From the NCBI GenBank assembly GCA_964016885.1, contig OZ024752.1:38874001-38938000 (forward strand): a stretch of 64,000 nucleotides of DNA, written 5' to 3'. The notes under the pieces were generated by a model that was given only the letters and a program-made list of their open reading frames with translations, was not told the origin of the DNA and ran no database searches. The DNA is from Eledone cirrhosa (lineage: Eukaryota). Both the position numbers and the translations under genes were made by a program. This document shows, piece after piece, positions 8,351 to 56,116 of this stretch. Positions within the stretch are counted from its first letter, which is position 1. Each line of letters opens with the position of its first letter.

Positions 8351-10348
8351 GTCTACACGTGTGTCATCATGCTAGTTACTGCTTTAAAAACCGGTGAAGG
8401 TCAATGAAATAAAGCACCATTCTTAAAAATAAGGCTGACTGCATCAGAAATGTTCGTCCAACAAAAGGCGAACGTGAAAACGATCATTACACTGTACTTC
8501 TATATTTAAATATCTAAGAGGCGATGCCGGGAAGAGCAGCCGGCAATAAAATCGTCCCAGAAGGTGCCATTCAACCCATACCAACATAGAAATGATGCCG
8601 TATTTTTTTAAAATGTATATATATATATATATATATATATAATAATTAATAAATAAAAAAAAAAAATTTAAAAAAAAATGGTTTTAGGAAGCCTCTACAA
8701 TGCAAACAAATTATAAATAGTTATAAATATTGAGGTAGCAATGACCTGATAAAGAAAAGATATGGGAGAGAAGGGGGGAAAAAAATGGATCGGAATGTTA
8801 TCTAAAATAAATATTTCGGATAAGGTATCCGTCCAACTAGAGGATGTAAATTAGCAGATTAAAAATAAAAAAAAATCATAAAACTAACAATTTCAACAAA
8901 TTTTGGTACAATAATTTCAGGCTTGTTAACAGCTTCAACTACTCATGCTGTAAGAGAAATAATGTGCCTACCCTAACTTCATATGTACAAAAGATCTGTC
9001 AGGAGAAAAGATAAAAAGAAAACAAGAAAACCGGCGAAAGCACTTATTTAACAGTGGTAAAGAACTTTTTTTTCCAAGTCTTAATTAACATTTTATTTTT
9101 TAAATTACATCTAAGGTGTTGCTCACGAGCCAAAACAAACTTATAGGCTCTTTAGGACAGCATTTTATCAGTGTTTCCTCCACAAGCTTTTGAGTAATGT
9201 GCATGAAATTCACATGGGGTACATTAGCTACAAGCAGAGTGGGATTTACGTATAAGCTAAACAAGCTATAGCTTGGGTCCCCGAAAAAAATTGGGGAAAA
9301 AAAAAAAAAAAAAAAAAAAAAACGGTGTGTACATTTCCAAAATATAAGATAAAAAAGAACTAAAATAATGCAATAGTTTTAAACAGTTTTCTGCTTTAAT
9401 ATTGAACGTTTTGCTGTTTTTATAACATATAAAGGGCCCCCATTATCTCAAATAACTTAGGGCCTCATCAAATCTAAATCCAGCCCTAGCTACAAGTTAA
9501 CTTTCTGAAGAAATCAATTCACACAAATTGACAATCCATTTCATTTAGGTGTGCGCATGCTCTAAAATTTATAGCACATGGACAAAGAAATTTAATGTAC
9601 AGCTTTCCAACCGTGACCAACACAGCTCCAACCAACAATAGGTGCTATAAATTGTATTAAAACTCTATTGAATTCTAATTACTACATTTATACAAAATGA
9701 TGAAACCGGATTTCAAATACAACTTTCCAACCGTGACCAACCCAGCCCAAACCAAACCAATAATAGTTGTTATAAATTGTATTTAATTTTTTTCAGCAAT
9801 AACATCTAAAATAAAAAATAAAAGACGAATCAGACCGCCAAGTGCTTCTAAAGAGTTTTTGCTAGCAAAAAGTTAATATTTTTATTTTAATACTTCTCTT
9901 GTATGGTCGCTATAGTTACCACAGCTTTCATTTTAGTTTATACAATAGATAGCATTTCGTTTTTGACATCCTTGAAAGGACACAAGAACTATCTAGAGCT
10001 AATATACATACACATGCTGTAAAAGGGAGCTGCTAACAATAGGCTTATATACATATATATATATATATATATAAGTATATATAATTAATTATTTGATTAT
10101 TACGTAAAATTCAGCACACGGTCTTATTTAACTTTTACTATTCCGGATCGCAATAATTAAGTGAAAATGTGTTTTGAAGAAGCTCACAATATTTGTGCTA
10201 ATTTGTTATTACCATGACGATAAATTAAAGCACGTGCTTCCTAGAATAAAAATGAGAGATTGAAGACCCCCATAAAAGTCAGTAGGCGTTAGGTTTCTAC
10301 AAGGATACAATTACCAACCATTAACTAAAAAAAAAAAAAAAAATACAC

Positions 10349-41847: not shown

Positions 41848-42374
41848 CACATGGCTTAGTGGTTAGAGCATTGGCCTTGCAATCAAAAGGCTGTGAGTCA
41901 GGCCGAGTGGTGTGTTGTTTCCTTGAGCAAAACACTTTATTTCACATCACTCAGCTGTAGAAATGAGATGATCATTCCACTGCAAAGTGGTTGTGGAGGT
42001 GCCACGGCAAAAAAGCACCCAGCACTCACTGTAAATGAGGTTGGTGTTAGGAAGGGCATCCAGCTGTAGAAAACAAGCCAGAATCAGTTCCCGTCCCACC
42101 CTTGCCAGCAGGGAAAACCAGACGTAAAATGATGATGATGATGATATATGTATGTATAGAAGGGGGTATTTAATTTGTTGGAAATCCTACAAATATAAAT
42201 ATAAATGTTTATAACTGATTAAATAAATGGTTGTTTTTGAATTATTTACATATTCATTTGCATATTCACCCATAAGTTTGAAAAATCCCTAATACATTTC
42301 CATTATCCAAAGAATATCCAACTGATAAGGTATGATTTTCCTGGGTATGTCTCTATTTATAAAACAAATTTTGT

Positions 42375-42435
42375 ATTTTATCTGAAGAAAGTGTACCAAA
42401 GTCTTTTGGTACCCTTGAAATATATATAATAAAAT
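42375..42435 (+). ncRNA. Minimal type-I hammerhead ribozyme motif (canonical core)
   Basis: attttat-CTGAAGA-aag t gtaccaaa gtct tttggtac c ctt-GAAA-tatata-TA-ataaaat: stem I, core, stem II, palindromic stem III, UA cleavage site. Confidence 0.8.
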
Positions 42436-42632
42436 AAATATGATTTTATAAATATAGTTTCCATTTATTTAATATCATTGTATATAAATATATATATATG
42501 TAATAAGAATATTTATATTTTTATATGTTTGATACAACTATAAATATTGAGGGTAGTACTAAGTACTAGCTGGTTACCGGTATGTATATATATATATATC
42601 CCAGTGATAAAATTTGCTCCGAACGAACTACC

Positions 42633-43181: not shown

Positions 43182-43230
43182 TTGCTCCGAAGACTCCAAA
43201 CCTCGGTTTGGAAGAAACAATTGTAAGCAA
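43182..43230 (+). ncRNA. Minimal type-I hammerhead motif with CCGAAGA (U4C) core
   Basis: ttgct-CCGAAGA-c tccaaacc tc ggtttgga a-GAAAC aatt GTA-agcaa, followed by AATAAA. Confidence 0.68.
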
Positions 43231-53765: not shown

Positions 53766-53899
53766 GCAGAAGTTATATTTAATTTGTTGGGATTCAACAA
53801 GCTTAAAAGTTTTATAACTGATATAAAGCACTCAACAGTTTACTGGAGTAAATATTCAATATATTAATAAATGGAAACTATATTTATAAAACCATAATT

Positions 53900-53962
53900 A
53901 TTTTATTATATATATTTCAAGGGCAACCAAGGCAATTTTGGTGCACTTTCATCAGATAAAAT
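53900..53962 (-). ncRNA. Minimal type-I hammerhead motif (left arm of palindrome)
   Basis: Minus strand attttat-CTGATGA-aagtgcaccaaaattgccttggttgccctt-GAAA-tatata-TA-ataaaat. Confidence 0.78.
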
Positions 53963-54106
53963 ACAAAATATGTTTTATAAATGTTGACATACCCGTAGAA
54001 AAACAACCTTGACAGCAGCTGAAGGTTTGCTGGATAGTCCAGCAAACCTTCAACCGTCAAGGTTGTTTTTCTACGGGTATGTCAACATTTATAAAACATA
54101 TTTTGT

Positions 54107-54171
54107 ATTTTATCTGATGAAAGTGCACCAAAATTGCCTTGGTTGCCCTTGAAATATATATATAATAAAAT
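54107..54171 (+). ncRNA. Minimal type-I hammerhead motif (right arm of palindrome)
   Basis: attttat-CTGATGA-aag t gc accaa aattgcc ttggt t gc c ctt-GAAA-tatatata-TA-ataaaat. Confidence 0.78.
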
Positions 54172-54316
54172 AAAAAGTAATTATGGTTTTATAAATATAG
54201 CTTCCATTTATTAATATATTGTATATATATATAATTGGTGTGGGATGCTTACAGAGCAGAGTATAATATCACATAAGAAACGGAGAATCAGTGGTGCTAC
54301 GAATAAGATTTATTAA

Positions 54317-54412
54317 ACATATTACAATCGTTTCTCTGGCGACCAGCTCGAGGAGGCACGATCGATGCAATGATCAAACCTGACTCTGAAATCGCAAGAT
54401 CCTCGGATATGT
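54317..54412 (-). ncRNA. Hammerhead-like motif with apparent 53-nt insertion in the core
   Basis: Minus strand acatat-CCGA-[53 nt]-GA-g ctgg tcg ccag a-GAAAC gatt GTA-atatgt, then AATAAA; perfect 6-bp stem I. Confidence 0.52.
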
Positions 54413-54450
54413 CTCGATTCTACGAAGCAGAGTTTCCAAATATATATATA

Positions 54451-55235
54451 TACCTTACCCAATTACACCTCTCAAAGACAATGACACACGACCGTGACTT
54501 CTGGCGTCACGCAGTAATACAGAGTACCCGACCTCCCATGGGTACATGCTCAAGCATATAAACAATATGCCCCCACCGCAAGGTGGTCGTGGAGGTGCCA
54601 CGGCAAAAAAAGCACCCAGCCCACACTGTAAAGTGGACGTGTAGGCGCCACGAAAAAGCACCCAGCACTCACTGTAAATGAGGTTGGTGTTAGGAAGGGC
54701 ATCCAGCTGTAGAAATCAAGCCAGATCAGTTCCTGTATGAGCAAGGCATGGTCAGCCGACCAGACACTGCCCACAACAGGACAACCCGTCTAACCCATGC
54801 TAGCGTGGAAGAACGGACGTAAAACGGTGATGATGATGATGATACCTTACCCAATTACACCTCTCAAAGACAATGACACACGACCGTGACTTCTGGCGTC
54901 ACGCAGTAATACAGAGTACCCGACCTCCCATGGGTACATGCTCAAGCATATAGACAATATGCCCCCACTGCAAAGTGGTCGTGGAGGTGCCACGGCAAAA
55001 AAAGCACCCAGCCCACACTGTAAAGTGGACGTGTAGGCGCCACGAAAAAGCACCCAGCACTCACTGTAAATGAGGTTGGTGTTAGGAAGGGCATCCAGCT
55101 GTAGAAATCAAGCCAGATCAGTTCCTGTATGAGCAAGGCATGGTCAGCCGACCAGACACTGCACACAACAGGACAACCCGTCTAAGCCATGCTAGCGTGG
55201 AAGAACGGACGTAAAACGGTGATGATGATGAATGA
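54451..55235 (+). repeat. 392-bp tandem duplication (LINE-3'-like piece plus SINE 3' half)
   Basis: taccttacccaattacacc... starts at 54451 and 54843; ORF-track duplicates are offset by 392. Confidence 0.93.
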
Positions 55236-56073: not shown

Positions 56074-56116
56074 ACGTTGCTGACGATAGCTAATAAGCTT
56101 GAAACTAGTACAGCGT
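56074..56116 (+). ncRNA. Minimal type-I hammerhead motif
   Basis: acgttg-CTGACGA-t agct aata agct t-GAAAC ta GTA-cagcgt; stem III is the palindrome ACTAGT. Confidence 0.75.

Follow-up and report, generated by a model that had tools for sequence, protein, structure and literature searches.

A predicted type I hammerhead with a contiguous core and a long stem II arm in a truncated Penelope-like element of Eledone cirrhosa

The stretch of Eledone cirrhosa DNA analysed here (64,000 nt of contig OZ024752.1, in the following called the window) contains on its minus strand a truncated 3′ end of a Penelope-like element, and this end carries a predicted type I hammerhead with a contiguous core and a stem II that is extended to an arm of about 60 nt. 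The motif likely cleaves the RNA of the element behind GUA, at a low rate and only in dimeric form or with help from the element's own protein; to this reading we assign a probability of roughly 70%. It is supported by the following, all of it computed here: the motif belongs to a repeat family, this family is linked to an ORF with reverse transcriptase (RT) and GIY-YIG domains, the contiguous core is invariant, stems I and II covary and the palindrome in loop III is kept. A first-pass annotation had already recognized the motif as a type I hammerhead whose stem III is minimal and palindromic, located at the end of a Penelope-like element, and in this we agree; the minus-strand letters at 54414-54309 match its quotation exactly and the predicted cut, 3′ of 54323 after GUA, falls at the position given there. 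However, the same annotation had the single base N7 replaced by 53 nt, which would create a fourth helix and a core that is split at position 7. This is not so: 54406-54400 reads CCGA-G-GA, a contiguous core, and the supposed insert is most of the long stem II.

The site in the window and its relatives

The site is a dispersed repeat in the 3.0-Gb genome, and its best 41 matches are 93-100% identical (40 of 1991 first-look candidates were scored). Clustering of 204 distinct near-full copies, with partial matches (60/264) left out, gave subfamilies A (59 copies), D (39), C (36), E (26), F (24) and B (6), plus 14 further copies. Together with H (23 copies), G (22) and J (16), searches that started from diverged copies yielded nine subfamilies, whose consensuses are 40-92% identical in pairwise comparison. 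Each copy set represents the best 40 of 615-2651 candidates and is thus biased to the least diverged copies; the candidate numbers are not copy numbers. A nine-taxon tree had support values of 33-95, too weak to order the changes between U4 and C4. Many variants of the family were present in two contig sets of one sample. Among the at least 120 loci listed from a metagenome pattern scan, none had a stem I of at least 3 bp plus the upstream core, and these matches were therefore rejected as relatives and attributed to chance.

The window contains a 207-nt, 5′-truncated copy of subfamily A (54234..54440, minus strand, as for all features in this and the following paragraph), which comprises pseudo-LTR and tail of the Penelope-like 3′ end. 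Homology starts at 54440, where the copy is cut off, and the copy ends at about 54234; (TA)n runs are found on both sides, and longer copies reach the GIY-YIG ORF. Without an ORF of its own, the window copy is most likely an inert insertion. Stem I is formed by a 5′ arm at 54407..54414 and a 3′ arm at 54315..54322. Its presence had been noticed before, but its length had been given as 6 bp; it is 8 bp in the window copy, including one G-U, and A-U to G-C covariation is found in subfamilies D, H and J. The 5′ catalytic core (54400..54406) is contiguous, C3-C4-G5-A6-G7-G8-A9, with U4C in the window copy, and the 3′ core, G12-A13-A14-A15.1-C15.2 (54330..54334), is invariant in 9/9 consensuses.

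The two parts of the core enclose the arm. Its basal helix, defined by alignment and covariation, has 8 positions with a pyrimidine mismatch at position 4; in the window copy the 5′ arm (54392..54399) pairs with the 3′ arm (54335..54342), that is, 54399-54392 with 54342-54335 (7/8), and encloses a further hairpin, so that a single stem II of 65 nt results. An internal-loop module has its 5′ strand (AG-AR-UC, in 9/9 consensuses) at 54382..54387 and its 3′ strand (GA-G-CU, invariant in 9/9 consensuses) at 54345..54349, 15 nt before G12. The apical hairpin of the arm, with a variable loop and a covarying stem, is at 54350..54381, and within it 54353..54355 is a 3-nt duplication whose placement in the repeat is ambiguous and which is private to the window copy (1/204 copies). 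The cleavage triplet GUA (GUC in subfamily J) occupies 54323..54325, and the 2-bp stem III with a self-complementary 8-mer, the predicted dimer interface, 54324..54331. The assignment of the segment 54234..54265 is based on 3′ ends that fall at two discrete positions in subfamilies A, C and D, and on the translations of L085 and L081.

Catalytic core and stem II arm

The likeness to hammerheads is far beyond chance: more than 200 distinct matches were obtained in a descriptor scan of 1,018,707 bases versus 4 in a block-shuffled control, the scanned bases being loci chosen around this family and hence enriched for the motif. The 121-nt region is no more stable than its own shuffles (z −0.08). 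The hammerhead models of Rfam gave no match over the site at E values up to 10 and none in six loci at E values up to 0.01; the sole Rfam matches were below the gathering score and driven by a microsatellite or a hairpin. With a stability at shuffle level and no Rfam hammerhead match, the question of a contiguous versus a split core had to be decided by comparison.

A fixed GA following a variable base is a signature of the hammerhead. Such a GA directly follows N7 in 9/9 consensuses, and all nine subfamilies have a contiguous CUGANGA or CCGANGA, a finding that the first-pass annotation itself had held to be incompatible with a split core. Position 7 is indeed variable and takes G, A (subfamily G), C (J, and also 10/36 C copies) or the two bases AG (H). 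On the other hand, C3, G5, A6, G8, A9, G12, A13, A14, A15.1 and U16.1 are all invariant in 9/9 consensuses (10/10 versus 16/105 of the other ungapped columns). The fixed GA after the variable base at the contiguous site argues for a contiguous, not a split, core, and from these alignments the predicted core is C-Y-G-A-N-G-A.

Stem II is, as judged by covariation, a hairpin arm of about 60 nt. The sequence between A9 and G12 measures 57-62 nt in the consensuses and has internal loops. RNAalifold chose the long stem without prompting on an alignment of 57 copies, in which 6/8 basal pairs vary on both sides; basal pair 3, for example, takes U-A, G-C, C-G and U-G. In the nine consensuses the six inner basal pairs are paired in 54/54 cells, and the diverged subfamilies have a double swap at pairs 7-8 (H), 7/8 positions paired (G) and a canonical G10.1-C11.1 together with GUC (J). 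In permutation tests, which ignore the kinship between subfamilies, the long stem had 58/72 cells paired versus 45.7 after shuffling, a value reached in 0/100,000 permutations, whereas the short stem of the first-pass annotation had 31/45 versus 30.1, which was reached in 36,095/100,000 (36%). When the core was constrained to stay open, the energy of the long-arm fold lay below that of the split fold in 10/10 sequences, by 1.6-16.1 kcal/mol; the ensemble probability of the long stem is low in subfamily E (0.02-0.05).

These data bear directly on the four-helix hammerhead that had been proposed, in which C3-x-G5-A6 and G8-A9 are parted by a 50-nt stem-loop at position 7, a short stem II precedes GAAA and a gating helix controls cleavage. 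The GA at 54349-54348 that had been taken for G8-A9 is the GA of the arm module; the GAGCU of which it is part is invariant in 9/9 consensuses and has a fixed distance of 15 nt to G12, as would suit a split core, but it already has a partner strand of its own with which it pairs. In A, B, E, F and J the short stem can reach 4 pairs, but it is broken in C, G and H, 4/5 of its pairs vary one-sidedly in the 57-copy alignment, where its closing pair is unpaired in 45/57 copies, and in none of the nine consensuses does its pair probability exceed 0.09. In the window copy it would have a G.A mismatch at 10.1-11.1 and a 3-nt loop, and its pair probability is 0.00. Both the length of 53 nt and the 5-bp GAGGA/UCCUC gating helix hang on the private duplication; this helix is not a feature of the family, its pairing probability being 0.004 in the window copy and at most 0.16 anywhere. 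Position 7 does widen to two bases in subfamily H, but according to PMC10085705, which in the part cited here treats permuted hammerheads and not long-armed ones, none of the known alignments has an insertion of more than 1-2 nt beside CUGAnGA. A split core is thus highly improbable. The expectation that standard descriptors miss the motif holds true, but the cause is the long stem II and not an interrupted core.

The contiguous core is, however, probably an attenuated one. U4C is the consensus in subfamilies C, D, H and J and is also found in 22/59 A copies, a fraction inflated by the fact that the first query itself carried C4. Decay of CpG was considered as the origin of the U4/C4 difference and rejected for subfamily A: other CpGs had changed to TG in 22 and to CA in 17 of 531 cells, whereas positions 4-5 read TG in 36, CG in 22 and CA in 1 of 59. 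Subfamily H has an extra base after A6 (A6a) in 22/23 copies, and this high-copy lineage (L209-L228) joins U4C and the A6a insertion with an A.C mismatch at 10.1-11.1. The R10.1-Y11.1 closing pair of stem II, usually G-C, that is expected of type I hammerheads does not hold throughout: 10.1-11.1 is G-C in J alone, U-A in A, G-U in F and unpaired in 6/9 consensuses. In the part of PMC3088659 cited here, mismatched natural cases show that the closing pair is dispensable in places, and U4C and A6a are described as rare natural variants with lowered in vitro activity. The open 10.1-11.1 in six of the nine lineages, U4C and, in H, A6a suggest that the intrinsic cleavage activity of the predicted ribozyme is probably low. 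In unconstrained folds the bases of the core are often paired (A6 with probabilities of 0.17-0.92).

The AG-AR-UC / GA-G-CU module of the arm is present in 9/9 lineages, fixed 15 nt from G12. Its invariance equals that of the catalytic core, in contrast to the surrounding helices, which covary. Since pairing alone does not demand such invariance, the module is likely a tertiary contact or a protein contact; more cautiously worded, it may be a contact or a binding site for the protein of the element. A different role would be that of a two-state switch, in which AG-AR-UC-AG pairs alternatively with an 8-mer about 30 nt past the predicted cut, in a pseudoknot-like contact of stems I and II that turns cleavage on or off. 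Such an 8-mer exists, and pairing with the arm is possible in 95.8% of the cells of alignment A1; the 8-bp helix fits subfamilies A-F and H, with 8/8 pairs and a compatible G-U to A-U change in H. However, only 6/8 pairs are left in G and J, though the arm module is still kept there, and no pair varies two-sidedly, whereas the competing local helix does have two-sided changes. The long-range helix is therefore not supported as a general feature, and a switch of this kind seems improbable to us.

The host element and the possible role of the predicted cut

Longer copies have, upstream of the motif, an AT-rich UTR of about 1.9 kb and before it a degraded ORF that encodes RT, a Cys-rich linker and GIY-YIG. 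Loci L063 and L064 have 2375 bp in common, from the GIY-YIG-type end of the ORF to the motif, and the motif-bearing end was present in at least 14 of 20 loci recovered with a query from the RT region. The link to the ORF was seen for subfamilies A, B, C, D, H and G; in H (L386) and in one copy of G (L248) it consists of endonuclease (EN)-like sequence upstream on the same strand. In L085, the motif flanks the ORF on both sides in direct orientation, an inverted copy is present in addition, and the upstream predicted cut site is 164 nt before the ATG. Copies of the element have two alternative 3′ termini, which are separated by about 80 nt (subfamilies A, C and D), and a TA/AT run lies at most 130 nt away in 53/59 A, 32/36 C and 30/39 D copies. 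The domains are modestly supported by databases. The RT piece had 20 homologs with 33-53% identity, two of them with PF00078. GIY-YIG was matched in Pfam with an E value of 0.0037, which falls short of the Pfam cut-off, and a Pfam search with RT/EN pieces and homologs matched 0/6 proteins.

Judged by its RT motifs, this element may belong to the Neptune clade. The Cys-rich linker suggests membership in either Neptune or Nematis (cf. PMC8557442, as far as cited here). The order of the domains in the ORF, pseudo-LTRs, inverted 5′-truncated neighbours and two 3′ ends are hallmarks of endonuclease-bearing (EN+) Penelope-like elements in the cited parts of PMC8557442 and PMC11167929; all of these, as well as the TA targets of EN+ elements, were found here, and on these sequence features the host is a high-copy EN+ Penelope-like element with RT and C-terminal GIY-YIG.

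Some subfamily A copies carry in their 3′ UTR a 32-nt minisatellite that has grown to 1-3 kb (L061:7621-8811, L062:5790-8836 and L065:7876-8847). At L061:2163-4387 (+), another Penelope-like element is represented by a degraded ORF whose RT is of a different type and whose C-terminal end is GIY-YIG-like.

How would such an element use a weak hammerhead? Stem III has 2 bp that are invariant and hence show no covariation. The 8-mer across it (15.2-16.2 plus loop III), whose palindromic nature is a criterion for the minimal hammerheads (min-HHR) of Penelope-like elements, is a perfect palindrome in 7/9 consensuses, in the form of three different palindromes, and a near-palindrome with G-U in A and B. 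By analogy to the cited parts of PMC4209133 and PMC6765202, two RNA copies would pair via the palindromic loop III and so form an active stem III. A cut after GUA would terminate the RNA of one unit and at the same time define where that of the following unit begins, about 165 nt before the ORF. Cutting would probably depend on dimerisation or on the protein of the element.

A precedent for assistance by a protein is the hammerhead of the Anolis element PAc, which, in the cited part of PMC11167929, needed its own protein to cut and was yet dispensable for insertion in vitro. This supports the protein-assisted model and, at the same time, leaves room for the view that the structure persists because it is recognized by RT/endonuclease or serves in recognition when the downstream ORF is translated, with self-cleavage being vestigial or dispensable. 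In favour of the latter, four of the nine lineages amplified with U4C, one of them also with A6a, and six with 10.1-11.1 unpaired; in that other Penelope-like element, hammerhead mutants did not alter in vitro insertion, and among the RNA-seq reads none had its end at the cut site, in the data cited from PMC11167929. However, catalytic bases, NUH triplet and dimer palindrome stay fixed or covary across consensuses that are only 40-92% identical, the pattern expected if the chemistry of cleavage is under selection. We consider vestigial cleavage rather unlikely and prefer a ribozyme that would still cut, slowly and with assistance.

Known hammerheads and other long-armed motifs

By core and topology, the predicted motif is a Penelope-type minimal type I hammerhead, in a long-armed variant whose arm contains an invariant module and whose cores are attenuated. 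The min-HHRs that Cervera and de la Pena 2014 (PMC4209133) described from metazoan Penelope-like elements, and whose activity is low, share with it, as far as described in the part cited, the type I topology, the CUGANGA/GAAA core, the 2-bp stem III with palindromic loop, location in the pseudo-LTR and occurrence in many subfamilies per genome, mostly as single truncated copies. They differ in three respects: their descriptor allows a helix II of 3-7 bp and a loop of 3-10 nt, whereas arm II has 57-62 nt with internal loops here; their consensus has G10.1-C11.1 with a bulged 9/10.1 base, whereas 10.1-11.1 is G-C in only 1/9 lineages here; and amplified lineages carry U4C and A6a here. In the cited part of Perreault et al. 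2011 (PMC3088659) the same two changes are rare; here they are the consensus of multi-copy lineages and occur together in H. The Anolis PAc (Poseidon) hammerhead (Frangieh et al. 2024, PMC11167929) resembles ours, in the data cited, by its position in a pseudo-LTR near the start of the ORF and by two discrete 3′ ends that define a tail, but it is cut 26 nt past the start codon, compared with a predicted site 164 nt before it in L085, and its 3′ ends are 30-40 nt apart, compared with about 80 nt. The EN+ elements with a Zn-finger linker (Neptune/Nematis; Craig et al. 2021, PMC8557442) have, in the part cited, the same arrangement of RT, Cys-rich linker and C-terminal GIY-YIG, the same pseudo-LTRs, inverted 5′-truncated neighbours and (TA)n targets, and differ by the long 3′ UTR (about 1.9 kb) found here. 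The core search in that paper, as cited, used a spacer of 7-17 nt, and eight Naiad cases with 35-50 nt merely received the label 'HHR_half_core'. Among viral type I hammerheads, a helix II counts as 'long' with 6-8 bp in the part of PMC13725137 cited here. We found no literature on Penelope hammerheads with stem II arms of 50-95 nt; some may be contained in the survey by Lunse et al. 2017, which covers these variants most widely, or in a supplement of PMC4209133.

With a relaxed descriptor, hammerhead-like motifs with an arm II of 11 to 95 nt were found in the 1,018,707 bases, and other families of the same genome reach 41-95 nt. Ten matches with arms of 51-95 nt all fold as a closed arm (10/10; z −1.3 to −5.5). 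Two of the long-armed families are young and have high copy numbers: one with a 90-nt arm (L065:4140-4285, minus strand; 30/40 scored copies identical over at least 146 bases) and one with a 92-nt arm (L054:2510-2650, plus strand; 23/40 scored copies identical over at least 138 bases). The 90-nt-arm family sits about 240 nt past the end of a GIY-YIG ORF in 4/5 loci. In L100 (minus strand, near 760) and L139 (minus strand, near 2910), the predicted fold of a 95-nt arm II is a three-way junction with a branch (z −5.3), and loop III is palindromic; on this basis, they are candidates for a true extra-helix hammerhead with the branch in arm II and not in the core.

Hammerhead motifs are also frequent around the site, with at least six in the 64-kb window. 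Two of them (54106-54172, plus strand, and 53899-53963, minus strand), in which arm II has 30 nt and loop III is an (AU)n palindrome, lie in the arms of a 107-nt perfect inverted repeat that adjoins the site, and this pair is likely to be the inverted ends of another Penelope-like family. Further type I motifs on the plus strand are at 42374-42436 (arm of 28 nt), 43182-43230 (20 nt, U4C core) and 56074-56116 (14 nt). Locus L093 contains on its minus strand four ordinary type I hammerheads with short stem II in tandem, retrozyme-like with a period of 310 nt, and one more at 9451 (+). Directly 5′ of the site, 54450-54749 and 54842-55141 are 300-nt copies of a different repeat, 99% identical with a spacing of 392 nt, which is also present in L010. 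A different retroelement at 27519-28292 (minus strand) has an RT fragment followed by a PHD-finger-like stretch.

It is tempting to speculate that long-armed type I hammerheads, with arms of 41-95 nt in several unrelated families, are an overlooked class in Penelope-like elements. In the clade studied here the invariant loop would bind the RT/endonuclease of the element and thereby switch on a core weakened by U4C, A6a and an open 10.1-11.1, so that the RNA would be cut only once the protein is loaded; the Naiad 'half-core' cases perhaps belong to the same class. This idea is tentative and we would not expect it to hold in full.

In two published search patterns, in the form cited here, the stem II region may not exceed about 17-26 nt, and hammerheads with arms of 40-95 nt therefore go uncounted. 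Where an element is said to 'lack a hammerhead', a second look may be needed. Nine lineages with their core variants and one invariant module represent a natural mutational series, with which it may be asked whether dimerisation or the element's own protein is needed to cut, and what the purpose of the cut is.
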